IMG/VR virus record: IMGVR_UViG_3300031576_000024
Span: 18,992 to 82,991 of that record
DNA from: a virus
Direction: 5' to 3' (one strand)
Length of the DNA: 64,000 nt
Shown here: piece after piece, positions 7,737 to 24,500 of the stretch
How the letters are laid out: the number at the start of each line of letters is the position of its first letter
Position numbering within the stretch: the stretch's first letter is position 1
Made by a program: the position numbers and the translations under genes
The notes under the pieces: model-generated
Databases searched by the model: none
Told to the model about the DNA's origin: nothing
The model's input: only the letters and a program-made list of their open reading frames with translations

Positions 7737-8180
7737 ATGGCTAAACGAGCGATATACTTGGCAGGAGCAATGGGTGGTCTATCTGTAGCTGACGCTAACA
7801 GTTGGCGGCAAGAATGCGAGATCGAGCTTAAGGGATGCTACGCTGTACTGAATCCTATCTCAGTACAGTTTGAGAAAGACCCGAAGTTCATATTCTCCAG
7901 CATAGAGCCTAACCTAACGGCACAGCAGGTGACAGTAAAGGATCGGTTCTACATTGACCAGTCTGATTTCATTCTAGCTAATCTGTCCGACCCGAAGGCG
8001 GTGTCTATTGGCACAATTTGGGAAATGGGCTATGCTTATGGGAAGGGCAAGAACATCGTGACCGTGTGTCCGACTGGCACGAAGTTTTACGACGGCCATC
8101 CGTTCGTGATGTGCTTCTCACACGTAGTCTTTCAAACCCTAGCGGAAGCTATTGACTTCCTTAATGACATAGCCGTGTAA
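7737..8180 (+). CDS. Nucleoside 2-deoxyribosyltransferase/N-glycosidase family protein
   Basis: IYLAGAM, NP, D..IDQSD, SIGTIWEMGYAY motifs. Confidence 0.85.
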   Translation: MAKRAIYLAGAMGGLSVADANSWRQECEIELKGCYAVLNPISVQFEKDPKFIFSSIEPNLTAQQVTVKDRFYIDQSDFILANLSDPKAVSIGTIWEMGYAYGKGKNIVTVCPTGTKFYDGHPFVMCFSHVVFQTLAEAIDFLNDIAV

Positions 8181-8182
8181 TC

Positions 8183-8443
8183 GTGTGGGAATTTTCGGCT
8201 GAAGAAATCCAGGCGTGGGTAGCTGCTAGTAATGTTGTTACCGCGCCTGTTCTCATTAAGGGTATAACATACCGCTGTGATAGCTGTAAGCGGTTCATGT
8301 CGGCCCTTGAAATGAGAGTAGAGTACAGCACGTTCTACTCCCATTTGACAAAAGAGTGTCTGACTAAGTTCGCTAACAAACACATGAAGAACTTAGACTT
8401 ATCTAAAGCACCGCAACAAATTCAAGTAACAGGAGACGTTTAA
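8183..8443 (+). CDS. Hypothetical protein
   Basis: 86-aa ORF coupled to the next gene by TAATG. Confidence 0.5.
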   Translation: MWEFSAEEIQAWVAASNVVTAPVLIKGITYRCDSCKRFMSALEMRVEYSTFYSHLTKECLTKFANKHMKNLDLSKAPQQIQVTGDV

Positions 8444-10038
8444 TGTCTAAATTAGGTCGATTCGCGGAAACTATTTTTGTTCGTACATACGCCGCAACGC
8501 ATGACGAAACTTGGGATGGTTGCGCAAGACGGGTAGCTGATTACGTAGCAGGCGACGATTACAAACATTTGGCAGATGACTTTTACAAGGCTATCTCTGA
8601 GCGTAAGTTCATGCCTGGAGGGCGATATCTAGCCCAAGCTGGTAAGGATATCCCCCAGCTAACCAATTGTTTCCTTTTGAGCGCAGAGGATTCCAGAGAA
8701 GGGTGGGCTCAACTGCTTAGGAAGCACATGATGGCATTATCTACCGGAGGCGGGGTCGGCACATGGTACGGAGACGTAAGACCGTCTGGACAGCCGATTA
8801 AGCGGTTTGGCGGGGTATCCAGTGGCCCTCTCGCCCTCATGTTCATGGTAAACGAGGTTGCACGTCACGTACTCTCGGGCGGGAAGCGTCGTAGCGCCTT
8901 ATGGGCTGGACTACCTTGGAACCACGGCGATATCGAAAAGTTCATTGTATCTAAGAACTGGTCTACAGCTATTCGGTCAATGAAGGAAAGTGACTTTAAC
9001 TTCCCGGCTACGTTGGACATGACAAACATCAGCGTGGCTCTAAATGATGAATTCTTCCAGAAGGTGAACAAAGATGATAAGGTATGGGACATCTACTATC
9101 GGGTCTGCAAAAACATGTGCAAAACAGGAGAACCGGGCTTTAGCATTGACACAGGAGTTAACGCTAAAGATGTTCTTCGGAATCCTTGTACGGAAGTTGT
9201 GTCGGCTACTGATTCTGACTGCTGTAATCTTGGTTCTATCAATCTAGCGAGGGTCAATGATATTGACGAACTAAAGAAGCTTACAAGACTTGCTGTAAAG
9301 TTTCTGTACCTGGGGACATTTCGTAGCTGGATGCCGGACGAATCGTTTGCTAAGATCCGCGAGAGGGATCGCCGGATCGGCCTGGGTATCATGGGTCTGC
9401 ACGAGTGGTGCATAAGACATGGAGAAAGATATGAGCCTAACGGCGAACTCGGCAAGTGGCTTGCTGCTTGGGCGAATATTAGCGACGATGAGGCCGTTAA
9501 ATTCAGTAAGGGAAAGGGAGCAAAGCCCGTTGCAGTTAGAGCAATCGCCCCAACGGGCACTATCGGAATTATAGCAGAAACAACGACAGGAATAGAACCT
9601 GTATTTTGCGTAGCCTATAAGAGACGCTGGCTTGGCACTGACGGACAGTGGGCCTCAGAATACGTTGTAGATCCTACAGTGAAGCGCCTACTAGATGAGG
9701 GTATCATTCAAGATCCCAATGACATTGAGGATTCAATCAAGCTAGCTCGGCATGTTGAACGTCGCATTCGGATGCAAGCCTTCGTTCAATCCTTCGTGGA
9801 TCAGGGTATCTCCAGTACGATTAACCTTCCTGAATACGGAGAGGCTGGTAATAACAATGTCAAGCAATTTGCTGAAACCCTTTTGGAATATTTGCCGAAG
9901 CTTAGAGGAATCACTGTTTATCCTGATGGTGCCCGCCCTGGTCAACCTATTACTAGCGTAAAGTGGGAGACAGCTATTAAGCACGCTAAAGTCGAAGAAC
10001 CAGAAGACAAGTGCTCCCAAGGCGCGTGCGGCATCTGA
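8443..10038 (+). CDS. nrdJ: Ribonucleotide reductase, probably class II (adenosylcobalamin-dependent)
   Basis: PGGRYL, TNCF, GEPG, NPCTE, CNLGSINL, IAPTGT, DQGISSTINLP, C-terminal CSQGACGI. No beta subunit nearby, so the class assignment is inferred. Confidence 0.88.
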   Translation: MSKLGRFAETIFVRTYAATHDETWDGCARRVADYVAGDDYKHLADDFYKAISERKFMPGGRYLAQAGKDIPQLTNCFLLSAEDSREGWAQLLRKHMMALSTGGGVGTWYGDVRPSGQPIKRFGGVSSGPLALMFMVNEVARHVLSGGKRRSALWAGLPWNHGDIEKFIVSKNWSTAIRSMKESDFNFPATLDMTNISVALNDEFFQKVNKDDKVWDIYYRVCKNMCKTGEPGFSIDTGVNAKDVLRNPCTEVVSATDSDCCNLGSINLARVNDIDELKKLTRLAVKFLYLGTFRSWMPDESFAKIRERDRRIGLGIMGLHEWCIRHGERYEPNGELGKWLAAWANISDDEAVKFSKGKGAKPVAVRAIAPTGTIGIIAETTTGIEPVFCVAYKRRWLGTDGQWASEYVVDPTVKRLLDEGIIQDPNDIEDSIKLARHVERRIRMQAFVQSFVDQGISSTINLPEYGEAGNNNVKQFAETLLEYLPKLRGITVYPDGARPGQPITSVKWETAIKHAKVEEPEDKCSQGACGI

Positions 10039-10118
10039 GATAAACGTCTGCATAGAACATGAGTGGCATAGTTATATGGGTGAACGTTGGTGTAGTAAGT
10101 GTAACAAAGGATGATAAC

Positions 10119-10364
10119 ATGAATAGAATCAAAAGATGGCTTCAATTGTACAGGCTGTATCGCTTAACTCGTATGCACACTTTAGACTTGTACGAGGAAA
10201 AGCTACGGATAGAAGATAGACTGCTTGAGGTACAAATCATTATTCAAGGAAGATCGACTATCTATGATGCCCCGATCGAAGTTAAAGAAGCAGCACTGTG
10301 GCGTGACCACGATAACCACGATCTACCTCCGGTAGATTCATTTCAGACAGTGGGAAAGATATGA
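10119..10364 (+). CDS. Hypothetical protein
   Basis: ATG (MNRIKRW) preceded by AAGGA; ATGA overlap with mazG. Confidence 0.5.
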   Translation: MNRIKRWLQLYRLYRLTRMHTLDLYEEKLRIEDRLLEVQIIIQGRSTIYDAPIEVKEAALWRDHDNHDLPPVDSFQTVGKI

Positions 10365-10747
10365 AGAAAGAACATGACGGAATGTACTCAACCCTAGCAC
10401 CTGTTGAATCTAAAAAGCGTGAACCTAGTTTGCTAGATACGTGGTTGGCTAATACCGATAAAACCGCAGTTTATCCTGATTCCTTTAACAAGGAACTCAC
10501 TGGTGCTGTATATCTCACCCTGGGGTTGAATGGAGAGGCCGGCGAGGTAGCCGATGAAATAAAGAAGATCATACGCAATGATAATGGTATTATTACACCC
10601 GAGAGGAAGAAGAAGCTGTACCTTGAGATGGGCGACGTGATGTGGTACTGGCTCCGGCTGACCAAAGAGCTTGATCTAGATATCGAAGATATCATGGCAG
10701 AGAACCTGAAGAAACTGAGTCAGAGGTATGAACATGAAGTCAAGTAA
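10361..10747 (+). CDS. mazG: MazG-like nucleotide pyrophosphohydrolase
   Basis: LGLNGEAGEVADEIKK...EMGDVMWY...NLKKLSQRY. Confidence 0.9.
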   Translation: MKKEHDGMYSTLAPVESKKREPSLLDTWLANTDKTAVYPDSFNKELTGAVYLTLGLNGEAGEVADEIKKIIRNDNGIITPERKKKLYLEMGDVMWYWLRLTKELDLDIEDIMAENLKKLSQRYEHEVK

Positions 10748-10967
10748 TTTATTCTGGGGTATTTTTAATCTGTTTCTAGGTGCGCTTATAGCTTCAACTA
10801 TATTATGGCACAGCGGCTACTGGCACAGGAAAGTAGTGGAGAATTGGAAGGAACAAGGATATGAGTGCTTTAGAGTCTACAAAGAACATGAAGAGGAACA
10901 AGGATATGAGTGCTTTAGAGTCTACAAAGAACGTGAAGCTGGTATCCGTTACGAAATCGCATGTTGA
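10728..10967 (+). CDS. Small membrane protein overlapping the thyX 5' end
   Basis: Hydrophobic N-terminal helix; contains the 45-bp tandem duplication. Confidence 0.45.
   Translation: MNMKSSNLFWGIFNLFLGALIASTILWHSGYWHRKVVENWKEQGYECFRVYKEHEEEQGYECFRVYKEREAGIRYEIAC
10849..10938. repeat. 45-bp tandem duplication (44/45 identical)
   Basis: AGGAACAAGGATATGAGTGCTTTAGAGTCTACAAAGAAC(A/G)TGAAG at 10849-10893 and 10894-10938. Confidence 0.95.
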
Positions 10968-11583
10968 TGGTATCCCGACAGCGGAAGGTCTGATTTGCTA
11001 TGTTGCTCGTGTTAGCAACCCTGCTAACCAGATGAACGAGCAATCGGCTCCTAAGCTTCTAAAGTATCTTATAAAGAACAAACACTGGAGTCCGTTCGAG
11101 TTAGTCCATATGACGGTAGAGATCAAGACGAGTAGAGCTATCGCTCAGCAGATCCTTCGGCATCGTAGTTTTAGCTTCCAAGAGTTTAGCCAGCGGTACT
11201 CTACAGCTACGTCAATGGTATACTACAGAGCTAGACGGCAGGATGTTAAGAACCGTCAGAACAGTATTGATGATCTATCTGTTGAAGTGAAAGAACAGTT
11301 TGAGGAACTTCAACTTGACGTTAACCAGCTTTGTGCAAACCATTACTCAAGAGCTTTAGAGTTGGGCATTGCCAAAGAACAGGCTCGGTTTCTCCTCCCT
11401 TTAAGTACAGCAACCACACTTTATATGTCCGGGTCCATGCGATCTTGGATTCATTATATGCAACTGCGTATGGACCCTTCAACGCAGTTAGAGCACAGAG
11501 AAATTGCAAACGAAATATACAGCATCTTTGCTCATAACTTTCCTAACATAGCGGCGGCACTACATGACAACCAAAGAGACTAA
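10861..11583 (+). CDS. thyX: Flavin-dependent thymidylate synthase (start uncertain: 10861, 10906 or 10933)
   Basis: HWSPFE, SRAIAQQILRHRSFSFQEFSQRY, EQARFLLP, TQLEHREIA. Confidence 0.96.
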   Translation: MSALESTKNMKRNKDMSALESTKNVKLVSVTKSHVDGIPTAEGLICYVARVSNPANQMNEQSAPKLLKYLIKNKHWSPFELVHMTVEIKTSRAIAQQILRHRSFSFQEFSQRYSTATSMVYYRARRQDVKNRQNSIDDLSVEVKEQFEELQLDVNQLCANHYSRALELGIAKEQARFLLPLSTATTLYMSGSMRSWIHYMQLRMDPSTQLEHREIANEIYSIFAHNFPNIAAALHDNQRD

Positions 11584-11992
11584 CCCTAAAGATGCTGTAG
11601 GAACAGGTAAATATCCGTCTTCTACTGTTCCTGCTCCTGTTATTGGTGAAGTAGGCTTAGCCATGTTGGAAGGGGCACGTAAATATGGTCGTCATAATTA
11701 CCGGGTAGCAGGGGTGCGAGCTAGCGTGTACTACGATGCCTGTAAAAGACACCTTGATGACTTTTGGGAAGGCGTTGACATTGATAAAGACTCCGGCCTA
11801 CCGCATGTTGTTAAAGCTATAGCTTGTTTAGTTGTATTGCGTGATTCACAGATGCAAGGCAATTGGGTTGACGACAGACCGCCGCCAAGTCCTAAAGACT
11901 GGCAAGATGTGCTTAATAAAAAAGCTAAAGAAATAATTGCAAAGTACCCTAACTCTAAAGATGCATACTTGGCATCGGATACAAAACTATGA
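11564..11992 (+). CDS. dATP/dGTP diphosphohydrolase domain protein (DUF5664-like)
   Basis: NPKDAVG...AMLEGARKYGRHNYR...YYDACKRHL...D.DSGLPHVVKAIAC. Confidence 0.82.
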   Translation: MTTKETNPKDAVGTGKYPSSTVPAPVIGEVGLAMLEGARKYGRHNYRVAGVRASVYYDACKRHLDDFWEGVDIDKDSGLPHVVKAIACLVVLRDSQMQGNWVDDRPPPSPKDWQDVLNKKAKEIIAKYPNSKDAYLASDTKL

Positions 11993-12378
11993 AGAAGCAG
12001 AAATACTTTGATGGATTCGGCAACCTAGAGGATGTTATTAGAGACTTTGAGATCGACACCGATCTTAATGACCGTAACATTCTATTTGCTTCTTATGCTA
12101 CAGAGGCTTATGAAGGAAGTGCGTTCGTCCTATTTAAGAGAGACAAGAAGCTCTATGAAGTCAATGGTTCACACTGCTCGTGCTACGGCCTAGAGGGTCA
12201 GTGGGAGCCGGAAGAGACTTCATGGGATGCGCTGGCAATGCGAATAAAGGTTGATGCTACCTTAAAGGGTAGTAACATGAATAAAATAAGAGTAAATATT
12301 TATGGTGTTGCTCCTGAAGGCGTACCGTATCTAGTTGAGCTAATCAAGAAGAACGTGAAGGTAAAAGATGCCGTTTGA
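11989..12378 (+). CDS. Conserved phage hypothetical protein
   Basis: FASY..YEGSAFVLF...LYEVNGSHCSCYGLEGQWEPEET resembles a recurrent phage family. Confidence 0.6.
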   Translation: MKKQKYFDGFGNLEDVIRDFEIDTDLNDRNILFASYATEAYEGSAFVLFKRDKKLYEVNGSHCSCYGLEGQWEPEETSWDALAMRIKVDATLKGSNMNKIRVNIYGVAPEGVPYLVELIKKNVKVKDAV

Positions 12379-15300
12379 TAGAACGGGTAAATGGACGGAG
12401 CCTGGATCGGAAACCGAATCCGAGTTCGTAAATGCTATTACGGCTCAGTCAAGTGACGGGCAGGAAGTTGCACTTACTCCCGACGTGGTGGCTAAGATCG
12501 AGGCTGCCATCCGTTCCAACGTTGGTGACAACAAAAACGTTGGCCGGCTCAACACACTTTCCTACTCCACCTTAGCTAGTGTAGTTAATAGTCCTGGGCA
12601 TGTAAGCGTTGTCATCCCTATCTACGGCGCTCTCAATCTAGTTAAGAAGGCCATTGAGTCTGTATTCAAACATACCTATTGGCCCTTTGAGCTTATCCTA
12701 GTTGACGACTGTTCTCCTGATCCTGCTGTCCGTGACTACCTTAAGACGCTGGAAGGTCAGAACAAGTCTGACAAGTGCATAGGATTGAAGGTTATCTGCA
12801 ACAAGAAGAACAAGGGCTTCGCTGCCACCTGTAACATCGGCATGAACGTCGGCACGGGTAAGTATTTCTGCGTTCTCAATTCGGACGTTCTAGTTACTCC
12901 CTACTGGTTAACCAAAATGGTTACTGCCGTAGAGGCTGATAAGTCACATGTCATTGTTAATCCGGTAACCAATAATACGGCCCTGATTAACGTGCAGATG
13001 GAACCTGGTAGATCGTATCTGGATATGAACCGTGCGCTCGAACGTAAATCACCTAAGAACTATCCTGAGATTATGCCTACCGGCTTCTGCTTGTTCTTCA
13101 AGCGTAGTCTCTTAGAAAGGATAGGAGGGTTCGATGAAGCCTACGTTTCCTACGGGGAGGATACGCACTTCTGGTTCCAATCTCTTAAGCTCACCTCTGA
13201 TAGCGGTGAGTACCTTGGCAACAAAGCTGTCATGGCTGACGATTGTTACATCTTCCATGAACGTAGCAGCAGCTTCAATCAAGTAAGTTCAGATGAACAT
13301 ATGGGCCTTCGGCGTTCTGGCTCGGAGCGTTTCCACAAGCTAAATCCTTCTTATGCAGACTGGAAGAATGGCTACAATGTTAACAAGGTCATGTCAGAGA
13401 TCCGCTCCAAGACACCCGACTCACTGTTTGACCACGATTACAAGTACAATTGCGTTTGGGTTGTAAAATCAGCCGACTTCTGCGGTGGTATGAAGTACAT
13501 AGCAGACATTGTAAATGAGCTAATTGAGCAGAATGTCAACGCTAAGGTTTGTGTTATCAAGAACACTCCTGACGCTCCTGAGAATGTCCTCAATGATCTA
13601 CATACTGCGCCTATCTTCTTTAAGGATGCAGAAGACTTTGTAACTAACTTCTCCACGCGCTGCTTTACCAACGGTGTCGTAATTGCCGCTGTATCTGAAC
13701 TTGTGTCGCCCGTAGGCATCCTTTGTCAGCGCATACAAAGTCTTACTCCTATTCATCACATTCAGTCATACGATCCTGAGCTTACTGCCATTCCTGAGTT
13801 AGCCGCAGAGCAAGCTCAAGCATATGGAAAGCTACGTTATTCCATATCGTCAAGTAACTGGATCACTGAACATCTACAGAAGGAAGGCGTTAAAAACATC
13901 ATCTTCACTACTCAACCGGGCGTTGATACGGACCTATTCCATCATGGCGACCGAAGCCGTGGCGACGATAGGTTTACCGTGATGATAGCTTTGAACGCTC
14001 AATATCCTTTCAAGGGTGCTGAGCGCGGCATTGAGGTTGCCAAAGAGATTATCAAGCGGGACAAAAATATCCGCGTCCTAGGATTGGGTATGGACTTCAT
14101 TCCCGATTGTCCGGCCATTGTAGGACTCGGTAAATTGTCACAAGGACGCTTGGCGCACCTCCTACGCACTGAGGTAGATGTGTTTATAGATCCAAGCTAC
14201 ATTCACAGTTACGGCATGCCTAGTTTGGAAGCTCTTGCTTGTGGCGTTGAAGTTGTCTGCTGGAATAACCGAGGCATTGGTGAGTACGCGAGCAATAAGT
14301 TTAACGGCGTTCATATCTTCATGCAGAACGTGATACCCGAAGAACTAGCCGATAGGTGTCTAAAGATTAAGGAGAATAAGTCCGCAGTCACTCTAGTTCC
14401 CTTATCAAGAGAAGACAGTGTTAATAGCTTCACTAATCACTTTGAAATAAACTTAGGTCTGGTACCATTCAAGAAACGGATTACTGTAGTCACCCCTCAC
14501 GCACGCAAACACGGTGGCCCGACTACGATCATTAATTTCGCTAACGTCTTGGGTTACTTGGGACACGATGCGCGCCTAGTATCAATCTATGACGATTTCA
14601 ACAATGAAGTAATAAGCTTCAAGCAAGTTCCGCTATTCATAGGCGTTGATTACATTAAAGAGTCTGACATGGTTGTTATCAACTCTGATAATCCGTTCAT
14701 TGAGCAGATTGTCAATCAGCCTTCACTTAAACATGCCAAGAAGGTACTTCTAAAGCTCAGCCACAATCCTCGCTTTAAGGCCATAGAAGAAGCTAGCTTG
14801 CGCATGCCCATATGGGATAAGATACTTTGTTCCACAGAGCATCTACGTGAGAAGTGTATCAATCCTATGCCTGATTGGCGTCACATTGCGTGGAGCCCCG
14901 ATAAGGTTCAAACTATCGGCTGGTATCATTACACGTTCCCTGTGTTCAACGCTCCCCCGGAGACGAGACAGTACGGGGTCATTGACAAGCAGATGCGTAT
15001 TGGGTATCTTATGCACGACCATCCCACAAAGGGGACGACGTTCGCCAATGCCATCGTCAAGGCTCTTAAGAACAAGTATGGCGCTAACGTAGACATCGTG
15101 ACCGTTGGTGAGGTAGCGCTTAAGTATAAGCCGCCGTGGATGACTTACGTGTTCAAACCTAACCGCCCTGAAATGGCACAGGTAATGAAGCAGTGCGATA
15201 TCTGGTTGGGAAGCTCCTTCAACGAAGGACTAGGACGTATGACACTGGAAGCTATGGCAGCGGGTTGCGCTATCGTAACTACCGACACTGGTGCAGAATT

Positions 15301-15502
15301 CCTTAAAGACCAAGAGAACTGTTTACTATACCCTCCCGGTGAGGCACAACAAGGCGGTGAAGCTGTAGATAAGCTACTATCAGATCCTAAGCTCTTCCAG
15401 AAACTAATCAATAACGGCTACCAAACAGCAGGTAAGGCAGCAGACCCGCACCAGTATGTACATACATTGAGGCAACTAGTACATGAACTATGCAAAACCT
15501 AG
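12368..15502 (+). CDS. Tri-domain glycosyltransferase: GT2 (GT-A) plus two GT4-like (GT-B) domains
   Basis: VSVVIPIY, LVDDCS, GFAATCN, LNSDV, GGFDE...YGED; then KG..RG...SYGMPSLEALACG; then HGGPTT...KGT...EGLGRMTLEAMAAGCAIV. Confidence 0.92.
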   Translation: MPFDRTGKWTEPGSETESEFVNAITAQSSDGQEVALTPDVVAKIEAAIRSNVGDNKNVGRLNTLSYSTLASVVNSPGHVSVVIPIYGALNLVKKAIESVFKHTYWPFELILVDDCSPDPAVRDYLKTLEGQNKSDKCIGLKVICNKKNKGFAATCNIGMNVGTGKYFCVLNSDVLVTPYWLTKMVTAVEADKSHVIVNPVTNNTALINVQMEPGRSYLDMNRALERKSPKNYPEIMPTGFCLFFKRSLLERIGGFDEAYVSYGEDTHFWFQSLKLTSDSGEYLGNKAVMADDCYIFHERSSSFNQVSSDEHMGLRRSGSERFHKLNPSYADWKNGYNVNKVMSEIRSKTPDSLFDHDYKYNCVWVVKSADFCGGMKYIADIVNELIEQNVNAKVCVIKNTPDAPENVLNDLHTAPIFFKDAEDFVTNFSTRCFTNGVVIAAVSELVSPVGILCQRIQSLTPIHHIQSYDPELTAIPELAAEQAQAYGKLRYSISSSNWITEHLQKEGVKNIIFTTQPGVDTDLFHHGDRSRGDDRFTVMIALNAQYPFKGAERGIEVAKEIIKRDKNIRVLGLGMDFIPDCPAIVGLGKLSQGRLAHLLRTEVDVFIDPSYIHSYGMPSLEALACGVEVVCWNNRGIGEYASNKFNGVHIFMQNVIPEELADRCLKIKENKSAVTLVPLSREDSVNSFTNHFEINLGLVPFKKRITVVTPHARKHGGPTTIINFANVLGYLGHDARLVSIYDDFNNEVISFKQVPLFIGVDYIKESDMVVINSDNPFIEQIVNQPSLKHAKKVLLKLSHNPRFKAIEEASLRMPIWDKILCSTEHLREKCINPMPDWRHIAWSPDKVQTIGWYHYTFPVFNAPPETRQYGVIDKQMRIGYLMHDHPTKGTTFANAIVKALKNKYGANVDIVTVGEVALKYKPPWMTYVFKPNRPEMAQVMKQCDIWLGSSFNEGLGRMTLEAMAAGCAIVTTDTGAEFLKDQENCLLYPPGEAQQGGEAVDKLLSDPKLFQKLINNGYQTAGKAADPHQYVHTLRQLVHELCKT

Positions 15503-15845
15503 AACTAAAGCTTTTAGCGTCACTATTAAAGACTGCGAGGTTGAGACGTTTCGGTGCGGCGGGCCGGGCGGACAGAATGTCAACAAAGTCGAAAGTGGTG
15601 TCCGCGTGCGCCATGTTCCTTCTAGTGCTGTGTCTGAAAGTCGGGAGTTTAGAGAGCAACATCGGAACAAGGTTAATGCCTTTATCAAAATGGCTAATTC
15701 GCCAGAGTTTCAAAAGTGGATACGAGTCGAAGCTGCTAGACGAGCGGGACAGCCATCAGCAGAAGAAATAGTGGAGAAGATGATGGGCTCTAAGAACATT
15801 CGAGTACAGTATAAGGTGGAGGGTAAATGGACGACAGTAGAATAA
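15483..15845 (+). CDS. Stand-alone class I release-factor/peptidyl-tRNA hydrolase (GGQ) domain protein
   Basis: ETFRCGGPGGQNVNKVESGVRVRHVPS...REQHRNK; lacks stop-codon-recognition domains. Confidence 0.9.
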   Translation: MNYAKPRTKAFSVTIKDCEVETFRCGGPGGQNVNKVESGVRVRHVPSSAVSESREFREQHRNKVNAFIKMANSPEFQKWIRVEAARRAGQPSAEEIVEKMMGSKNIRVQYKVEGKWTTVE

Positions 15846-16567
15846 GGCGCGGGGTTGGAATTTGCCACTATAACCGGCAGAAGTACCTTAACGAGATTAT
15901 CTTCGCTGTACAGAATACAGTACCGAAAGGTACTCGCGTTGTGGTGTGCGACGACGGCTCCAACCCTCTAAACATTCTTGAAGATATTACACTGGTTCAA
16001 GGTAAGAATCTTGGTGTAGCAGCGAACAAGAACCGTGCCTTGTGGGCGCTTCAGGACTGTCACTACATTTGCATCCTAGAAGACGACCTTAAGCCTATCT
16101 CTAAGGGTTGGTTTGAAACCTATGAGAAGGCTGCCAACCTGTCCAACATTCACCACTTCTGCCGTGTTCAAGACAAGCACGTCCAAGAAACGTCTCCTGA
16201 GTTTGCTCAGTATATGAAGACGCATGGATTCACGCCGATTTACGGTCCCACTCCGCGTGGAGACTTAACGTTTATAACACACAAGGTTGTGGAGCGCATT
16301 GGTGCTTTCAACCCTCTCTTCATAGGCGCTGGTCACGCGCACGGGGAGTGGAGCCATAGAGTATGGAAAGCGGGGCTGATCGGCCACAACAATAAGTGGG
16401 TTGACATCATGGAAGCCCGTAATATGTTTGAACAACTTGGCGATACCGAAGGCGGACGCTGGGTTCTAGATCCTAAGGATTTACGTAAGCAACTTATCAG
16501 AAACGAGAAAGTGTACAAGGATCTTCAGAAGACAGCCTACAGCCACCTTCCTTTGAGCCTGGAGTAA
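15827..16567 (+). CDS. Glycosyltransferase family 2
   Basis: GICHYNR, VVVCDDGS, NLGVAANKNRAL, ILEDD, IGAFN. Confidence 0.88.
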   Translation: MDDSRIRRGVGICHYNRQKYLNEIIFAVQNTVPKGTRVVVCDDGSNPLNILEDITLVQGKNLGVAANKNRALWALQDCHYICILEDDLKPISKGWFETYEKAANLSNIHHFCRVQDKHVQETSPEFAQYMKTHGFTPIYGPTPRGDLTFITHKVVERIGAFNPLFIGAGHAHGEWSHRVWKAGLIGHNNKWVDIMEARNMFEQLGDTEGGRWVLDPKDLRKQLIRNEKVYKDLQKTAYSHLPLSLE

Positions 16568-16569
16568 CA

Positions 16570-17313
16570 ATGGAACAGTATACAACAAAGTGCGGTGTGG
16601 AGCTTCCTCAAGTAGACCCTGAGAAAAACTACGACATTCTGCTATACAAGATAGGGAATGATTGGGAAGAGTTCCTTCGCTGCGATACTATGCACAAAGT
16701 CACTGACCCTGCTGACGAAGACTTCCGTAAGAAGATCGCACAGGCAGCTTGCACAATGTATACCACTCGCGGTATTGGTATTGCCGCTAATCAATTGGGC
16801 TTCAAAGAGCATTGGTGTATCGTAGATACACAATGGCCTCAAACTGGTATAAAGGTTCCGCGCGTAATCCTCAATCCCAATACAAGAGACAGCGTACTAG
16901 TCGAGACTCAGAAGGCCAGCCACGAAGGCTGTCTAAGTGTGCCTATGGGGTTCAAGGGAACTGTGGCTAGACATTCGGCAGTAGACCTTTACTATACTGA
17001 CCTTATGGGCAATGACGTATCGTGGCAAGCATTCGACCTTGATGCTGCCGCCGTCTTACACGAGCTAGACCACCTAAGAGGGCGATTGTTCATTGACAAC
17101 ATTTCCAATCTTCGCTTAAGCTTCCTAGAAGGTAAGCTTCGGAAGGTACAGAAGATGGTCAGGAATCGCATTAAGAACAACAACCGCAGCGTAATTGCCC
17201 AGGTTAAACGCATGAACATCATCTACTCATGGAGCGCACAGAAGAGACTTGATCTCGCTGCTAAGGAAGCAGAGAAGCTTGTGGTTGAACAACCTGAGGT
17301 AGTAGATGAATAA
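16570..17313 (+). CDS. def: Peptide deformylase with basic C-terminal extension
   Basis: All three PDF motifs: GIGIAANQ, EGCLS, HELDH. Confidence 0.95.
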   Translation: MEQYTTKCGVELPQVDPEKNYDILLYKIGNDWEEFLRCDTMHKVTDPADEDFRKKIAQAACTMYTTRGIGIAANQLGFKEHWCIVDTQWPQTGIKVPRVILNPNTRDSVLVETQKASHEGCLSVPMGFKGTVARHSAVDLYYTDLMGNDVSWQAFDLDAAAVLHELDHLRGRLFIDNISNLRLSFLEGKLRKVQKMVRNRIKNNNRSVIAQVKRMNIIYSWSAQKRLDLAAKEAEKLVVEQPEVVDE

Positions 17314-17575
17314 ATACCTTATGAGCGAGGGTAGCGTACAACTCGGCATGGTCTTTATAGAGAGACACGGCGGGTTTGTTACTGGATCTCATAACGCACC
17401 GCTAATCGGGTACTTCTGTAAAGTATACGATGAAGATTCCGATGCTTGGAATGCACAGGGACACGGACTTACATATGATCTAGCAATGGTTTCTTTGTAC
17501 CTTCTGCGTACCAAAGGTGAGCTACCTAAGCCACCTGAATACTTCTCTAAGACTAACTTCTATCTGGAAAACTAA
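17306..17575 (+). CDS. Hypothetical protein
   Basis: 89-aa ORF overlapping or coupled to both neighbours. Confidence 0.5.
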   Translation: MNKYLMSEGSVQLGMVFIERHGGFVTGSHNAPLIGYFCKVYDEDSDAWNAQGHGLTYDLAMVSLYLLRTKGELPKPPEYFSKTNFYLEN

Positions 17576-18480
17576 TGAAGATACTACTTGCTAAACATCT
17601 ATGGGACTACGAAGGTACGCCTATCGCTACCTACGCTACATCCCTGTCCAGAGCTTTCACACAGGCTGGACACGAAGTCACAGAGATAGATAAGCAGATC
17701 ATCCTAGATGATAGCGTTTACAGGGCACACGATCTTCTGTTCGATATTGACTGCGGTAAGGATATGAAGGGGGATCAGAAGTTTCACCTTTGCCATCCTA
17801 AGATCCAGTCCCTAATTAAGACTGTCTTCTTTGCAATAGACTCGCACGGAAATGCTGATATGCACCAACGACTGTCACGCTCCGCAGACTATGTATTCTT
17901 TGCTATATGGGATAAGCGCGACCTGTTCGCCGACCATCCTTCAGCTACTTGGACTCCAAGTTTCACGGATCTTGCTTACTTCGACGGTGAAACGTTTACC
18001 TCGGAGAAGACAAAGGACTTCTGCTTCCTAGGCTCCCTTGGCGGGCTTGATAGAGCAGATCCTATGGTGAAAGCGTGCAAAGACAATAACTGGACTTTCG
18101 ACGTGGATGAAGTAGGCCGTAAGGGAAAGCACACATGGCCCAGGACCGCTGAGCGCATGGGTGCTTGCAGGTTCGGGTTCAACCACGGACAGAAGCACGA
18201 CGGACCTAACCTGCGTACTATAGAGACGATGGCTATGAAGTTGCCGCTTATCTGCGACCAAGACACGCGAGACGGCAAAGGTTTCCTCTTCGAGCCTTGG
18301 CAGCACTACATTCCCTACAAGGCGTATTCGTATGAGGGACTGCTGGAGCGCATGCAGTGGTGCATGACAAACCCCGATAAGGCTGCTAAGATTGCCAAGC
18401 AAGCATATGATGAAGTGTGCCTAAACCACCTGGCCTCGCACCGCGTACAGACTATACTGGAGGTAGTATGCAAATCCTGA
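17575..18480 (+). CDS. Glycosyltransferase, GT-B fold (CgeB-like)
   Basis: DFCFLGS, GFNH...DGPNLRTIETMAMKLPLICD, HYIPY, KIAKQAYDEVCLNHLASHRVQTIL. Confidence 0.8.
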   Translation: MKILLAKHLWDYEGTPIATYATSLSRAFTQAGHEVTEIDKQIILDDSVYRAHDLLFDIDCGKDMKGDQKFHLCHPKIQSLIKTVFFAIDSHGNADMHQRLSRSADYVFFAIWDKRDLFADHPSATWTPSFTDLAYFDGETFTSEKTKDFCFLGSLGGLDRADPMVKACKDNNWTFDVDEVGRKGKHTWPRTAERMGACRFGFNHGQKHDGPNLRTIETMAMKLPLICDQDTRDGKGFLFEPWQHYIPYKAYSYEGLLERMQWCMTNPDKAAKIAKQAYDEVCLNHLASHRVQTILEVVCKS

Positions 18481-19220
18481 TGTTCACACCTGCCCACAAG
18501 GATGAGTTCATAGCCAAGGCCAAGACCATGAAGAAGCGTTACCCTGAAGTAACTATTGTCTATGATCTAGAAGACGGTGTGCCCGCGACAGAGAAGAAGC
18601 GGGCCTTTGAGAACGTGAAGAAGCACGCCCGTACAAAGGATTGGGTTCGCATTGACGACAACATGACATATGAGTTATACGACCTACCTACCGTACAAGC
18701 CATAGTCATTCCTAAAGTCACGCCTTACGTACTTGACCGTTACGTCGATATGGACGGTCGAAACAGCTTTGGCTGTGATAGAGTAATCGCTCTCATTGAA
18801 ACTGCTGCTGGCGTTGACGCTGCTAGTTACATTGCCGAGAAGGCTGGCGGTGTCATATTTGGGCAATATGATTTCATATTATCAATGAATTCCGAACTAC
18901 ACACTGACTACGCTAGATCACGGATCTTGAATGCATGCAAGGCTGCTGGCATTCCTGTGTATGACAGCCCTGACTACTCCCTGGACTTAAACACGATCAT
19001 GCATAACGCTAGGCAGGCGTACTGCCTAGGCTTTGACGGCATGGCAGTTCTACATCCTGACCATATCAAGATCGTGAAGGAAAACTTTAGAGCGCCTTAC
19101 AACCAGAGAGTATGGGCGAAGGGTATCTTGAAGAACGCTGGAGACGGACTGACTGTCTTCCAGAACACAATCATCGGCCCGCCCATAGTTAAGCGTGCCA
19201 AGCAAATACTACAGAAATGA
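18468..19220 (+). CDS. citE: CitE/HpcH-HpaI aldolase-citrate lyase family protein
   Basis: YDLEDGVP, WVRI, IPKV, LIETAAGV, FGQYDF, GFDG..LHPDHI; GGAGG RBS before ATG 18468. Confidence 0.82.
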   Translation: MQILMFTPAHKDEFIAKAKTMKKRYPEVTIVYDLEDGVPATEKKRAFENVKKHARTKDWVRIDDNMTYELYDLPTVQAIVIPKVTPYVLDRYVDMDGRNSFGCDRVIALIETAAGVDAASYIAEKAGGVIFGQYDFILSMNSELHTDYARSRILNACKAAGIPVYDSPDYSLDLNTIMHNARQAYCLGFDGMAVLHPDHIKIVKENFRAPYNQRVWAKGILKNAGDGLTVFQNTIIGPPIVKRAKQILQK

Positions 19221-19280
19221 GAGTGGTTGCTATCCTCATAGCAGTTATCTTGGTTCTCACTATTCCGTGAAAGGGCATTC

Positions 19281-20123
19281 ATGTATAATGTAGGCATCAT
19301 AGGATTAGGCTTCGTAGGTGGTGCAACGTCACGCGCGTTCGCACAATACGCAAACGTTAGGGTTTACGACAAGTACAAGAACATCGGCACTATCAAAGAG
19401 GTAGCTGAGCAGGCTGTTGTGTTCGTATGCGTGCCTACGCCCATGCGCGCGGACGGCTCCTGTGACACCTCAATCGTTGAGAGCGTTGTAGCCGACCTTA
19501 GTACGTTCCCTAACGCTGATAGAGAAGTGGTAATCAAGTCTACCTGCCCGCCTGCATTCTTCTCTAAGCTACAGGCTACATATCCGCTTGCCGGGACTAT
19601 CATCTTTAACCCTGAGTTCCTAACAGAACGCACAGCGGACCTAGACTTCATTCAGAGTACGCGGTTCATCTTTGGAGTCGAGCTACCTAATGCTGCTGCA
19701 AAGTTTATCGTATTGAAGCTACATGAGGAGCGGTTCCCTGGCACACGTCTTGCAGTGATGCATTGGGAAGAAGCCGCTATGGTTAAGTACGGCTGCAACG
19801 TGTTCTTCACAGTCAAGCTAAGCTTCTTCAATGAGTTAGCTCGTGTCTGTGAGAAGCTAAATGGTTTCACGAGTTTTCCCACTGTTATCAATGAAATCCT
19901 ACAGGACGGGCGTATTGGGAGGTCACACTTTCAGGTACCCGGCCACGATGGCGATAAGGGATGGGGTGGAGTCTGCTTCCCTAAAGATAACAGAGCATTC
20001 TCTATATTTGCAAAAGAGTTGTGTGTGAACAGCCATATGGCAGATGCCGCTTGGCAAGTTAACCAAGAGGTACGATCAGATCGTAATTGGGAGAAGGAAA
20101 AGGGCAGAGCAGTAAGTGAATAG
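19281..20123 (+). CDS. ugd: UDP-glucose/GDP-mannose 6-dehydrogenase (short form lacking the C-terminal domain)
   Basis: GLGFVG, VCVPTP, IKST, NPEFL, KYGCN, GWGGVCFPKD with catalytic Cys. Confidence 0.92.
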   Translation: MYNVGIIGLGFVGGATSRAFAQYANVRVYDKYKNIGTIKEVAEQAVVFVCVPTPMRADGSCDTSIVESVVADLSTFPNADREVVIKSTCPPAFFSKLQATYPLAGTIIFNPEFLTERTADLDFIQSTRFIFGVELPNAAAKFIVLKLHEERFPGTRLAVMHWEEAAMVKYGCNVFFTVKLSFFNELARVCEKLNGFTSFPTVINEILQDGRIGRSHFQVPGHDGDKGWGGVCFPKDNRAFSIFAKELCVNSHMADAAWQVNQEVRSDRNWEKEKGRAVSE

Positions 20124-20281
20124 TAAATACAAATGCTACAGATGTCGAAAGTACATTAAGCCTAAGCGTGTTCCACATGCTGTGACGTGCTTTGACAAGA
20201 ATCTTCCTAGATTTATACCACAAAAAGGCAGAACATACTGTGAGAAATGCTGGCCTGTAATACTTAGAATTTGGAAACAAA

Positions 20282-21013
20282 ATGAACAACGTAACACCCG
20301 TAGTATTAGTTAAGAACGATGCCTTCTGGCTCCCATATGCGTTAGAGTCTATCTCCGGTCACTTTGAACATATGGTCATCTACGATGTGGGAAGTACTGA
20401 CAATACAAGAGATGTTATAGATTGGTTTGTTTCCAAAGAATTATACACCCACTTCATAGTAAGAAAGCTTCCGCACTGTCCGCCTGAAGTACAGCTCTGT
20501 TTCCGCAACTCAATGATTGCTGAAGCCGGAACAGGAACATATCTCATCCTTGACGGCGATGAAGTCTACAACAGAGAAGACCTAGAGAAGATTGACAAAA
20601 TCGGCGATATCTTACTAGAACATCATGGTGAAAACAGTCGTGTGCGCTACACAACGTTCCGTCGGGTAGAAGTGAGTCCCGACCTGTTGCAGCGCTATTC
20701 GGAAGAAAGAACCCATCACAGGCTATATCATCGGTCAGCGATATGGAACGGAACGCACCCGGGGGAAGTACCCTTCTTTGAGCAGAACAGTAAGTCCGAA
20801 TTGGACTTTACTTCAGATATGCGAGTTCTGCATTTGCACAATACGGTACGCTCGCCCAAAGAGGACGAAGCGTTAAGTCGTATTAAACGAAAAAGCCAGC
20901 GCTCCTATCACCCAGGAACACTGGCTAAGTTTAACGTATTAGAGGAATTTCCTTTGCTTAAGCAAAGGTTGCCTTTTCCCGTATGCCCGGCCCTGGAGGC
21001 GTTATGGGGATAG
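20282..21013 (+). CDS. Glycosyltransferase family 2
   Basis: VVLVKND, YDVGSTDNT, RN, LILDGDE (DxD), RLY...HP. Confidence 0.82.
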   Translation: MNNVTPVVLVKNDAFWLPYALESISGHFEHMVIYDVGSTDNTRDVIDWFVSKELYTHFIVRKLPHCPPEVQLCFRNSMIAEAGTGTYLILDGDEVYNREDLEKIDKIGDILLEHHGENSRVRYTTFRRVEVSPDLLQRYSEERTHHRLYHRSAIWNGTHPGEVPFFEQNSKSELDFTSDMRVLHLHNTVRSPKEDEALSRIKRKSQRSYHPGTLAKFNVLEEFPLLKQRLPFPVCPALEALWG

Positions 21014-21233
21014 CGAAATGTGTATGTGGTAGGAACACTGACTTCGGAATACTCTGCGTATTCTGTAGTCGGGATAAGCTCCTAGACCGCTCTTACGATG
21101 ACGAAGAGGCTACGCCTACTGAGAAGGATACTCCTGAGCTTTCTGAAGAAGAGGAAGAGAATCCTTAAACTTACCTAAGCCTGTATTGCAATCTGCACAA
21201 AGTAACGTACTTTATTGTACTCAGGAGTTGCCA

Positions 21234-21509
21234 TTATGCCGCCTTGCACTTTCTAGTTCGCGCTTCCAAAAGATCAGGATGAACGCTCAAAGTAAACTGT
21301 CTTACTTCAGCCCAGAACATCTTAGCAGCAGGTGACTTTGACGAGTTAAGTCTCTCACCGGCTACTTGATGCAGTGCCCCGGCTTCAGTGTAAACTTCTA
21401 GCGCGTCTATACATGTCCACTTTTCCATGTACGACGGTAGCGGTTTGTTTGGGTCAGCAGGTGCCATCAAAACTAGTGACAGTAAGAATATAACTGCTAG
21501 TCGCTTCAT
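21234..21509 (-). CDS. Small secreted/membrane protein, last gene of the virion arm
   Basis: Signal-peptide-like N-terminus MKRLAVIFLLSLVLMA; TAATG coupling. Confidence 0.5.
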   Translation of the reverse strand: MKRLAVIFLLSLVLMAPADPNKPLPSYMEKWTCIDALEVYTEAGALHQVAGERLNSSKSPAAKMFWAEVRQFTLSVHPDLLEARTRKCKAA

Positions 21510-24500
21510 TAGAACAGCCCCGAAGATCCGAACCCTTCTGAGCCTAGGTCAAAGTCAAAATCCATATCGAATCCTATTGCGTCTCCGCTTTGGTGCTTGC
21601 TAAATTGACGTGCAATGATTTCTCTGCGCAGTTCTTCAACGCGCTGATCGCTAAACTCGCCACGGTGCTTAATAGCAAACGCGGTAGCTTCCTTTAGACG
21701 AGCCTTTAGCTCTTCCTCACTGAACCTCTTGTACTGAGGGTTCCTACGAAGTTGAGGAATTAAGTCTTCAATGCTGGCAGAGAACTTTGCCTGTGCTTTG
21801 CGCGGATCATCGTACTGTTGTGAGTAGGTGATGAAATAGTCCTGCATTAGACTCGCAAAGCTTTCCTCGTCACCGTTGATAGCAGCGTTCGTCATCTTAC
21901 GCTTTATTGACGAGCGGAACGTCTTTAGGTTATCGTCACGCATCTTGTCATTGAAAGCCTTTGTTCCAGGGTCAGCCTTCCAAGACTTACCAAGGCCGGC
22001 TACGCTAGTAAGAAGCACATCGTAAATAGGGTTCCCGCGCTCACCTGTCTTTGAGTTAACGCGCATACCAATGTCTTCTTCAAAGCGGCTTGTGTCAATC
22101 TGACTACCTAGAGCAAGACCGGCAGTAGCGCCTGCGGCTATACCAGGGATACCTAGCTTTCTGCCAGCGATAGCTCCTGCGGCACCCGATAGTGTCATAG
22201 TTGAAAGCTGATCCAAACCAAAGGCACCCTTAGTAGGAGAGCCTACTCTAAGCCCGTACTTCTGAATCCACGGAGGGGAGATCATACCGAATGTCTGTAC
22301 CAGAGCCTTACCCATGTAGTCCGACTTACTGTCAGCTACAATCTCCTGACCGTACTCGTCTTCACCCATTATTAGGCGTAGAAGAGGCATCATAACGGAT
22401 AGCGGTTCAACGGGGCTTACCTTCAGCAGTTCCTTTGCCATGTTTGAGCCAGGGTCCATGTGAACATCGTAGGTCTGAGGCAGGATGGCACTATGAGGTA
22501 GGAAGTCTAGAGTCCAGGCTCTTAGTGAGTCTTCACCCTTAGATCCAAAGTAACCCAGTCCTGCACCTGTTATAGCACCGACTGAAGAACCTACAGCGAA
22601 GCCAAGTGGCCCGGCCTTTAAGGCTCCAGCCATACCAACGGCAGCGGCACCTGTGAAAGCACCAGCCGCAACGCCTTGTCCTTCTGAGGTACCAATAACA
22701 GTCGTAGGCTTGTTTGCCCAGAACGGTGCAGATTCTTTAGCTTCGTTAATCTGCTCAGGTGATGTAGGAGCAAGTCCTAGTCCTGACATAACTGATTGAT
22801 GCGTGCCCGCAGCTTGGAACCACATAGCAGAGGCTAGTGGTCTGTCTACCATGTTGTTACGCATGATACGGGTTACTTCAGCAGGGAACGTAGCCCAAGG
22901 AAACGCCCATCTGCGAGCGCCCTGGATAGTCTTACCAACAGTCTTGTACTGAGGGAACTTACGCGATACCTGCATTACTGATTGCTCAATACTCAGGCCG
23001 CGCTTTCTAAACTGCATATACGTTGCCAGCTTAGGCGTCATATCTTCTGCTAGATAAGCAGCGGACATTCTCTTTAGAAGAGGTGTCTTGATTGTCTTCT
23101 CTAGTATCTTGTCTGTACCTTCAATCGCCTTAACGTACATCTTAGCAAGGCCAGCAGTGGCATTGTCAACGTAAGCAAGCTTACCAGCATTGTTCTTTTC
23201 AAGATGCTCATAGAACTTGTGGATAGCTGAGAAACCTTCAGCGTTATCGAATGACTGATCTTCAATCATTTGACGTACACGCGGGTCCATGATCTCATCT
23301 ACAAGGTCTAGCCTAGTTCCAGCGTTTGTAATGATTTCGGTATTAGCACCGGCCTTTCTGACGATTTCCAGTAACGAAGCACGGTCTGACATGATCGACG
23401 TAGCGTTACCCTTCTTAGCGGCAATTTCCTTAGCCACGCCCCATACAAGGCTGTTGGCATTCTTCATGTCCGTAATGACAGAACCCTTGAACGGGTTAAC
23501 TCCAGCCATAGGCATGAAGTACAGAAGGTTACTTACTACGTTCTGGAAGTGCGACGGAAGGTTGAAAACTGTCTTTGCGGGCTTGTGCATCGCCGTTAGC
23601 ATCGAGATAGCATTGGCAGCATTGTGCCCAGCATTCAGAGCACCACCATCAGGGTCGAAAAACTCGTCTATGACGTTCTGGTGAACGTAAGGCATGCGGT
23701 CAATTTCTTCCGCTGTCTTGCTAGTTGACTTGGCTACCATTCTCTTTAGGCGATCAGATACGCCCCTCCCAGGTAGATCATCAAGGCTGACCCATGCGGC
23801 TTTAGCCATACCACTTAGCTTGTCGTAGGACTCAGGGTTGATGGCGATTCTGTTTGTTGAAGAGTCGCCTGCCTTAAGAGCAATGTCACGCATGAACTTA
23901 TAGCCTACGTGCAGTAACTCGTCCTTAACAATGCTTGTTCTGTGTACATCGTTGATGTTAGTGATAAGCTCACCATTGGAAGCAGCGTCGATAACCTCGT
24001 CTAGCGTCTTCTTACGCTCTGTTAGCGTAGGAGAGAAAAGCTTAGGGTAGGTACGAACCTTACCAGTGCCTTCAAGGATCTTGGCTCCACCTGTTACATC
24101 GGCTACGGTACTAAGGTCTGTATTCTTGTAGATAGCCGCAACGTGGGCCTTACCTACGCGCGCTACTGTCTCAGGAGACATGAACCCTGATTCTACGGCT
24201 GCCTCTTGGTGTTGCCAATAGCGGTTACGTGTCCTCTCGAAATAGCGTTGCTTGGTTGGAGATAGCTTAGCAAAGTCAGCAACATCATGCCTATCATTAA
24301 GGAACTTGTAATAGAGAAGATTGTCAGCAGGCTCAAGATCATGGATGAATAGTTCGTCAAGTTTGGCGTTATCCCAAAAGTCATTCATGTTCCTAACATA
24401 TGCCTTGTTAACCTTATTCCCAATGTTGAAATAAGAGTTGGCAAACTTCTTTTGCATCATGTACTGAGCTTGCTGCTTAAGAGATCCACCACCTGATTCT

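Follow-up and report, generated by a model that had tools for sequence, protein, structure and literature searches.

A conserved operon with six glycosyltransferase domains in an uncultured tailed phage, predicted to build a multi-sugar glycan

What does a tailed phage do with six glycosyltransferase (GT) domains in a single operon, and to what are the sugars attached? The question is raised by a stretch of viral DNA of 64,000 nucleotides, here called the window, which comprises bases 18992-82991 of one linear IMG/VR virus record of 82,991 bp (IMGVR_UViG_3300031576_000024). CheckV estimates the record to be about 69% complete, which leaves about 31% of the genome outside the contig. The operon is a single tightly coupled unit on the + strand, from 12368 to 21168 of the window. 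We regard it as well supported by the predicted domains and their conservation that the product is a multi-sugar glycan and not a single glucosylation, and we tentatively suggest that the acceptor is the virion proteins of the phage. The genes of the operon, in window coordinates, are as follows.

12368-15502, + strand: GT3x, 1044 aa, a GT2+GT4+GT4 fusion; core gene.
15483-15845, + strand: RF-1 domain protein, 120 aa (PF00472 64.1 bits, phrog_3122, GGQ motif).
15827-16567, + strand: GT2a, a GT-A enzyme of 246 aa (PF00535 29.7 bits; DDGS and EDD motifs); core gene.
16570-17313, + strand: peptide deformylase, 247 aa (PF01327 101.8 bits; GIGIAANQ, EGCLS and HELDH motifs).
17306-17575, + strand: open reading frame (ORF) of 89 aa with no Pfam, PHROG or PADLOC match and no homologue in the relatives.
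17575-18480, + strand: GTB301, a compact GT-B enzyme of 301 aa, CgeB-like / GT4-like (PF13524 49.9 bits); core gene.
18468-19220 (250 aa, ATG start) or from GTG 18417 (267 aa), + strand: CitE-like / HpcH-family CoA-ester lyase (PF03328 53.6 bits).
19281-20123, + strand: short Ugd-like NAD-dependent sugar dehydrogenase, 280 aa (PF03721 + PF00984).
20116-20313, + strand: putative basic ORF of 65 aa with a GTG start and, in its translation, two CxxC pairs and an isoelectric point (pI) of 10.2.
20282-21013, + strand: GT2b, a divergent GT-A enzyme of 243 aa (PF00535 17.4 bits); core gene.
20983-21168, + strand: ORF of 61 aa that has a cluster of Cys residues and ends in an acidic tail. It closes the operon, and the convergent structural module follows; it has a weak homologue in one related record (G006, see below) and no Pfam or PHROG match.

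The sequence-only reading of this DNA had described four GT genes with six GT domains, a ugd gene and a CitE-like gene in one operon of overlapping or abutting genes. The translations and Pfam domains bear this out, and nine of the 11 junctions overlap (by 1-32 nt), while one has a gap of 2 nt and one a gap of 60 nt. The operon was however thought to end at 21013 and continues to 21168, and it also carries an RF-1/ArfB-like gene, a peptide deformylase gene and four small ORFs. Promoter and terminator scans of window 8000-22000 gave no excess over shuffled sequence (19 vs 18.9 and 9 vs 10.5, respectively), and PADLOC gave zero matches for 10 cluster proteins. In a crude hydropathy scan no cluster protein has a transmembrane segment, and all of them look soluble; the same kind of scan found no polytopic membrane ORF of at least 80 aa in the 83-kb contig.

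In GT3x, the largest of the proteins, Pfam recognizes a GT2 domain (PF00535, residues 80-252, 86.6 bits against a cut-off of 23.3) and two GT4 stretches (PF00534/PF13692, residues ~490-660 and 886-1037, with PF00534 at 92.9 bits). We set the domain limits to ~76-345 for the GT2 domain, ~346-700 for the first GT4 domain and ~701-1044 for the second, and these are preceded by a conserved short acidic N-terminal segment. D114, N171-S172-D173, H613...E621 and E953...E961 are invariant in 20 aligned sequences, which means that the DD and NSD positions of the GT2 domain, an HX7E motif in the first GT4 domain and an EX7E motif in the second are all kept; we presume that EX7E has the meaning here that it has in GT4-type enzymes. 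GT2a lies above the PF00535 cut-off and matches phrog_2456 at E 7e-31. GTB301 is well above the PF13524 cut-off of 25 bits, and its AlphaFold2 model (pLDDT 94.4) is a compact two-Rossmann GT-B fold, for which Foldseek finds retaining GT4 enzymes in the PDB (TMq 0.67-0.73) and, on top among the viral models of BFVD, CgeB-like GTs of phages and mimivirus-like giant viruses. A tblastn search with GTB301 against phage records gave no matches.

GT2b falls below the PF00535 cut-off, but model and motifs indicate that it is a GT-A glycosyltransferase all the same. YDVGSTD and DGDE are invariant in an alignment of 35 sequences, with S38, D40, D91, D93 and E94 never replaced, and there are 208 homologues. 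The AlphaFold2 model (pLDDT 94.3) has the S-glycosyltransferases SunS and ThuS as its top PDB matches in Foldseek, then SpsA, and also heparosan synthase (E 3e-9 to 1e-7). The HMM and structure searches that had been proposed as a check thus confirm the GT families, GT2b by way of its model and motifs. Degenerate catalytic residues, which had been held to speak against an active pathway, were not found in GT3x or GT2b. As far as can be judged from sequence, all six GT domains have intact and invariant catalytic motifs, and the cassette is real, conserved and apparently active.

Relatives were found by a search with the capsid protein, which gave 23 related IMG/VR loci with 71-83% identity, in records that are fragments (5-73% complete). 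Back-translated pattern searches of IMG/VR with GT3x and with the 1263-aa protein that adjoins the cassette gave no relatives. GT3x was sought in 10 of the related records (given G numbers here), and the cluster proteins were run by tblastn on stretches of more. It was found in four of the 10, G001, G002, G005 and G006, and the first three of these share the gene order of the four GTs, flanked by the ThyX side and, on the minus strand, by the gene for the 1263-aa protein. The contig of G006 starts inside GT3x and that of G007 ends inside GT2a, and with these two partial cases the four-GT core is present in 5/5 contigs that reach the locus; co-occurrence of the cluster in related phages was one of the checks proposed in the sequence-only reading. 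Coverage of the locus was worked out for G001-G007, of which G003 and G004 stop short of it. The identities in the relatives are 37-46% for GT3x, 52-59% for GT2a, 45-52% for GTB301 and 42-53% for GT2b. A wider search with GT3x gave 105 matches, 91 of them full-length with 37-100% identity and all metagenomic, and 10 contigs of these full-length relatives are 104-129 kb long. GT3x of this phage itself is also on record on a contig of 129,437 bp, and complete genomes of the lineage are put at about 120-130 kb. Five of the 91 have LAGLIDADG inteins, as GT3x of G002 probably has too, which argues that the gene is conserved and important. A GMP-reductase/IMPDH-like gene of G002 is likewise split by a LAGLIDADG intein (L032 16780-18939).

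The operon is insertion-prone and has accepted unrelated genes. In G006 the cassette has a short-chain dehydrogenase and a 298-aa unknown gene inserted, and in G001 and G007 there are HNH-AP2 homing endonucleases. Such inserts, with the deformylase and the RF-1 gene in this phage, could mean that the GTs are unrelated auxiliary enzymes without a common product, or that they act on some other soluble acceptor: a small molecule, a glycocin-like secreted peptide or a host protein. The folds fit with this to some degree, as the top matches of GT2b are glycocin S-glycosyltransferases (SunS/ThuS) and those of GTB301 include BshA, MshA and a tetrahydrobiopterin glucosyltransferase. However, the four GT genes keep a fixed order though GT3x has diverged to the degree given above, which argues for one pathway, and a precursor peptide or an export gene is not evident. 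Six domains also far exceed what small-molecule or glycocin systems are known to use, and we find either reading improbable.

A second glycan cluster is located in the first 4.1 kb of the contig, outside the window, and consists of a GT17, two S-adenosylmethionine (SAM) methyltransferases and an NAD-dependent dehydratase. The latter is closest to dTDP-glucose 4,6-dehydratase, and it bears an intein of the LAGLIDADG type (L001 1973-4099). G001 has homologues of the GT17 and the dehydratase near the integrase, with the cluster inverted, and the dehydratase is also present in G004 and G007. The integrase homologue of G003 is joined directly to a methyltransferase homologue, which places the second cluster past the structural module and beyond the right end of the window. 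Between the integrase and the replication genes, the contigs differ from one another by rearrangements. Two distant GT3x homologues have mixed domains (GT17 + methyltransferase + GT2 + GT4 in P0096, and methyltransferase + GT2 + GT4 in P0099), a hint from domain composition that both clusters may serve a single pathway.

Six GT domains with intact motifs, a conserved four-gene core and the second cluster are together what makes a multi-sugar glycan, which had been proposed from the number of transferases, a well supported inference. We picture the operon as a cytoplasmic, phage-borne oligosaccharide assembly line that would work without a lipid carrier. Each of the six GT domains would add one sugar in turn, from nucleotide sugars made by the host or the phage, and the second cluster would supply 6-deoxy and O-methyl sugars. 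Accessory genes that vary between lineages would adjust the set of sugars: the short Ugd-like enzyme (probably for a uronic acid), maybe the CitE-like enzyme, and the short-chain dehydrogenase in one relative. The virion proteins would then receive their glycans in the cytoplasm, either ahead of assembly or in the course of it, as is the case for chlorovirus capsids and for the capsid and tail-tube proteins of mycobacteriophages. The sequential action, the donor sugars and the acceptor are what we infer from these genes.

There is a rather similar design in the chlorovirus PBCV-1, where, according to the accessible text of PMC7826918, a soluble GT with three domains of ~300 aa builds capsid glycans (A111/114R, with A064R as another three-domain GT), and where further single-domain GTs, a methyltransferase activity and sugar-nucleotide enzymes are found and the host membrane pathway is bypassed. 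The ThyX of this phage is also closest to that of PBCV-1. The two differ in that the host here is a bacterium, judging by the deformylase and ArfB-like genes, and in that the order of the GT domains here is GT2-GT4-GT4, and the likeness is one of design and does not come from a comparison of GT sequences.

The glycosylation loci of mycobacteriophages (Che8 gp108-110, Corndog gp35-38) likewise belong to tailed phages and group 2-4 soluble GTs in a small cluster, in some cases together with a methyltransferase. The operon differs from them in its six GT domains with a triple fusion, and the phage lineages are unrelated. There is however a link by homology to the Cluster F locus. GT2a has matches in 571 phage records, of which 536 are Mycobacterium phages, and it is 27% identical to the N-terminal half of Violac gp102 (E 3e-22 to 3e-21) and similar to the N-terminal domain of McProf gp43 (E 3e-19). 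Two genes away from Violac gp102 lies gp104, a protein with 88% identity to Che8 gp110. In the available parts of the papers concerned, gp110 is essential for capsid glycosylation (PMC12363180) and the glycans of mycobacteriophages sit on the capsid and tail-tube subunits (PMC12619734, PMC12363180). Among the viral folds near GTB301 in BFVD, a 'DNA alpha-glucosyltransferase' comes only at rank 36. The link to Violac and Che8, the SunS/ThuS fold, the CgeB-like viral folds and the chlorovirus-like design favour a protein as acceptor, all of them indirectly. A virion glycan shield, put forward already in the sequence-only reading, is still our leading guess, and it now draws on the soluble enzymes, the lack of lipid-carrier machinery in the contig and the Cluster F homology, while its original argument from serine and threonine content falls.

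That argument concerned the virion proteins, which are encoded in a long structural module on the minus strand, after the + strand genes, with these landmarks:

40943-42154, minus strand: major head (capsid) protein.
48141-50357, in the structural module: portal protein.

The S+T content is 16.4% in the capsid protein and 17-18% in two large structural proteins, where 110 ORFs have a median of 12.4%, and the virion proteins have no long S/T tracts and the capsid protein no S/T-rich C-terminus. Notably S/T-rich virion proteins or an S/T-rich capsid tail were not found. The capsid C-terminus does have a conserved motif, K-I/L-T-x-L-S/T-x-P/S-T-Y, in 13/13 sequences, which is short and bears threonine.

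The S+T content is one of several points that weigh against the virion as the presumed acceptor. GT2a does not match Che8 gp108-110 or Corndog gp34-39 significantly, and a functional test of Violac gp102 was not seen in the accessible parts of the phage-glycosylation literature, where no search was aimed at Violac or gp102. The PDB folds nearest to GTB301 (5ze7/5zes, 7qsg, 3mbo and 6kih) are, in the available text of PMC13326640, also reported for phage DNA arabinosyl- and glucosyl-transferases, and the T4 alpha-GT is among its PDB matches (rank 26, TMq 0.65), so this fold cannot name the acceptor. The similarity between GT2b and SunS (TMq ~0.52) is barely over that to other GT2 enzymes. The operon is convergent with the structural genes and not co-transcribed with them, and it shares its strand with the nucleotide-metabolism genes upstream. 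Finally, the ~31% of the genome that lies outside the contig must be kept in mind.

The position of the operon leads to the DNA of the phage as another possible acceptor. The + strand carries genes for a UvsX-like protein, SbcCD, a protease, EndoVII, an exonuclease subunit, RNR, MazG, ThyX and a MazZ-like dNTP diphosphohydrolase, and the operon lies on the same strand directly downstream of the last four. Four genes of nucleotide metabolism upstream of it have these positions:

7737-8180, upstream of the cassette: nucleoside 2-deoxyribosyltransferase-like protein.
10361-10747: MazG.
10861-11583: ThyX, matching PBCV-1 ThyX over its full length (E 1e-66).
11564-11992: protein with a MazZ-like dATP/dGTP diphosphohydrolase N-terminal domain.

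With these neighbours the GTs could build an oligosaccharide on a modified base and so block restriction and CRISPR. The Bacillus phage SP-15 has a Ugd homologue as well, and its DNA contains a hypermodified base that bears a sugar. Known examples of phage DNA glycosylation are the alpha- and beta-GT of T4, the glycosylation of 5-hydroxycytosine in RB69, DLP3 and RL38J1, and the GT clusters linked to TET/5mYOX. As far as the accessible text of the sources goes, such clusters are like this operon in that they have several GTs per phage, of GT-A and GT-B types related to lipopolysaccharide and teichoic-acid GTs, and are found near nucleotide-metabolism genes. GTB301 shares its nearest PDB entries with proven DNA GTs, as said above, and the unseen part of the genome leaves room for missing genes.

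Oligosaccharide-scale adducts on DNA are in print and count in favour of this reading: glycans of mono- to tri-saccharide size (bioRxiv 10.1101/2023.12.21.572611; PMC13326640) and, in the available text of PMC9023294, a sugar-like thymidine adduct of ~1 kDa (1044 Da) in YerA41, which may be a further example. The di- and tri-saccharide products of the clusters named above are another likeness, but six domains are more than the three-sugar products described in the parts available to us. A ThyA homologue (PF00303) and a TET/JBP (PF12851) or 5mYOX enzyme were found in 0/1 own record and 0/22 related records, all fragments, and a dNMP kinase in none of the scanned ORFs. Pathways for base hydroxylation are usually clustered, according to section 9 of bioRxiv 10.1101/2023.12.21.572611, which is available in part. 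The sequence-only reading had noted that the window has neither a base hydroxymethylase nor a Gtr-like membrane protein, and this holds across the whole 83-kb contig, that is, ~69% of the genome.

The ThyX is close to the PBCV-1 enzyme, a proven dTMP synthase, and this closeness and an RHR motif lead us to reject the idea of a disguised hydroxylase. It is far nearer to the chlorovirus protein than to bacterial ThyX structures. PurZ (PF00709), the test for a Z-genome that the MazZ-like gene called for, is absent from the contig. The viral folds that come closest to GTB301 belong to CgeB-like GTs from giant viruses and not to DNA GTs, and the GTs have near-neutral or acidic pI values (6.1-8.2), which as a hint of DNA binding is uninformative and at most weak evidence against DNA. 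The missing hydroxylases lower the case for DNA, yet the records are fragmentary and the operon follows the nucleotide-metabolism genes, and we consider DNA hypermodification unlikely but worth keeping in view. A special form of it, in which the six GT domains build a glycan of hexasaccharide scale on the phage DNA by a new route that would need neither a ThyA-type nor a TET-type hydroxylase, and in which a sugar already in place, and not a UDP-sugar, might be what the Ugd-like enzyme oxidises, seems most improbable to us. With MazG, the MazZ-like protein and the deoxyribosyltransferase-like protein, and without PurZ, the phage seems to reshape the nucleotide pool.

The genome also has an integrase, located as follows, which is one of the points in favour of the host envelope as acceptor, a reading that we place slightly ahead of DNA.

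58338-59138: tyrosine recombinase (Phage_integrase, 90 bits), kept in relatives.

Soluble GTs could act at the cytoplasmic face of the membrane, on host precursors linked to a lipid or a polymer (O-antigen, capsule, teichoic or teichuronic acid), and leave it to the initiating transferase and exporters of the host to finish the work. The changed surface could block superinfection, free progeny phages from debris or serve lysogenic conversion. Among curated families the closest are of the exopolysaccharide, teichuronic-acid and O-antigen type (TuaG, EpsE, EpsD and TuaC, and for the dehydrogenase TuaD), with no score anywhere near its cut-off, and one source calls a homologue an 'O-antigen biosynthesis protein'. 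The Foldseek matches of GT2b include TarP and TarS, and TarP is a soluble, prophage-borne GT-A enzyme that acts on wall teichoic acid. On the other hand, the contig has nothing like an initiating phosphoglycosyltransferase, and no flippase, polymerase or Gtr-type membrane protein. It differs in this from serotype conversion by GtrA, GtrB and GtrC, with their flippase and membrane GTs, and phrog_841 (GtrB-like) is matched at E 3e-4 only. Modules for conversion tend to be variable morons close to attachment sites, whereas this cassette is a core of fixed order in all relatives that reach the locus and is found ~37 kb from the integrase, beside the structural module. The inteins in GT3x also point to a gene of importance in the lytic cycle. 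Remodelling of the host envelope is in our opinion a doubtful explanation, albeit one with several observations behind it.

For the remaining genes of the operon the evidence differs from gene to gene. The Ugd-like enzyme had been taken as a UDP-glucose dehydrogenase. It does resemble Ugd, TuaD and AglM in its NAD-binding GxGxxG (GIIGLGFVGG) and GGVCFPKD motifs, both aligned to 3vtf, in its KST and NPEF motifs and in its central domain; we take the Cys of GGVCFPKD to be catalytic and GxGxxG to bind NAD. It is however not a canonical enzyme of this type. Only the N-terminal and central domains (PF03721 and PF00984) are present, while a search at E <= 1 found the C-terminal domain that binds UDP (PF03720) neither in the ORF nor elsewhere in the contig, although the control genomes matched. 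About 35-50 residues of the N-terminal domain are missing too, and alignments to PDB entries end at about residue 314 of 444. The TIGR03026 score is 147.1 bits against a cut-off of 189.8, and the equivalog models are far below theirs.

A decayed pseudogene might be suspected, but we reject this, since no part of the contig encodes the missing domain and the short form predominates in the closest relatives: in the best 120 of 6494 matches none has PF03720, and the lengths are 248-308 aa except for two of 450 and 468 aa with HNH inserts. Short Ugd-like forms of ~250-310 aa are common on phage-sized contigs, and the cyanophage C48C1 has one of 319 aa beside a nucleotide-sugar epimerase gene. The gene is found in 0/22 related records. 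Nevertheless, 12 of the 91 contigs with GT3x, including five of the 10 that are at least 100 kb, are equal in exact bp to a contig with a short Ugd gene, and these coincidences suggest that it is probably a frequent accessory across the wider lineage.

The CitE-like protein belongs to the HpcH/CitE superfamily of TIM barrels (PF03328). It aligns with the M. tuberculosis CitE-like structures at the active-site positions (PDB 6aq4, E 2e-13, with DLEDGV, VRI, ETA and D aligned), and its nearest Atlas clusters are bacterial CoA-ester lyases (TM 0.85-0.87). It differs from the known citryl-, malyl- and citramalyl-CoA lyases and RipC in having no partner subunits here and in scores far short of the equivalog cut-offs (51.9 vs 443.4 bits for TIGR01588 and 75 vs 375 bits for RipC). 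The sequence-only reading counted it as part of the system, but 0/22 related records carry the gene, and a role as a conserved part of the pathway is not supported. The literature, searched for connections between these lyases and phages or DNA modification, yielded nothing relevant. It is a private accessory of this phage, and we see no link to glycans. The RF-1/ArfB-like protein (a predicted peptidyl-tRNA hydrolase) and the deformylase are by their domains auxiliary translation proteins unrelated to glycans; the former has a weak match in G001 only, and the latter has homologues in G001, G006 and G007.

On the other side of the cassette lies a gene that is part of the fixed surroundings of the locus.

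21509-25300, minus strand: protein of 1263 aa adjoining the cassette, without a family match.

The protein is fast-evolving, with only 22-34% identity in relatives in which the capsid protein has 71-83%, and its nearest named Atlas cluster carries the polyvalent-protein domain LPD38; the protein might be packaged or might interact with the host. Outside the window the contig also encodes a family A DNA polymerase with an N-terminal uracil-DNA-glycosylase-like domain (L001 14972-17662) and a patatin-like phospholipase (L001 8794-9849), the latter with 52% identity in G001. The phage is a tailed phage without a close cultured relative, and no near-identical DNA was found among 50,697 phage records. 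A literature search on the gene combination found no description of the lineage; the supplementary tables of the cited papers, which the search did not cover, may list related clusters.

That phages encode glycosylation is established for three kinds of target: DNA, host surface glycans and, in a few actinobacteriophages, virions. What is added here is an uncultured lineage that keeps a cassette of six GT domains as part of its core; the evidence for this is the 91 full-length relatives of GT3x, of which ten have contigs 104-129 kb in length. It raises questions of enzymology, such as what the product of the GT2-GT4-GT4 fusion is, and how a widespread Ugd-like enzyme works without a UDP-binding domain. 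If the virion is the target, autonomous protein glycosylation in the style of the chloroviruses would be common in environmental tailed phages, and it would have a bearing on phage-host recognition, antibody evasion and the stability of the particle.

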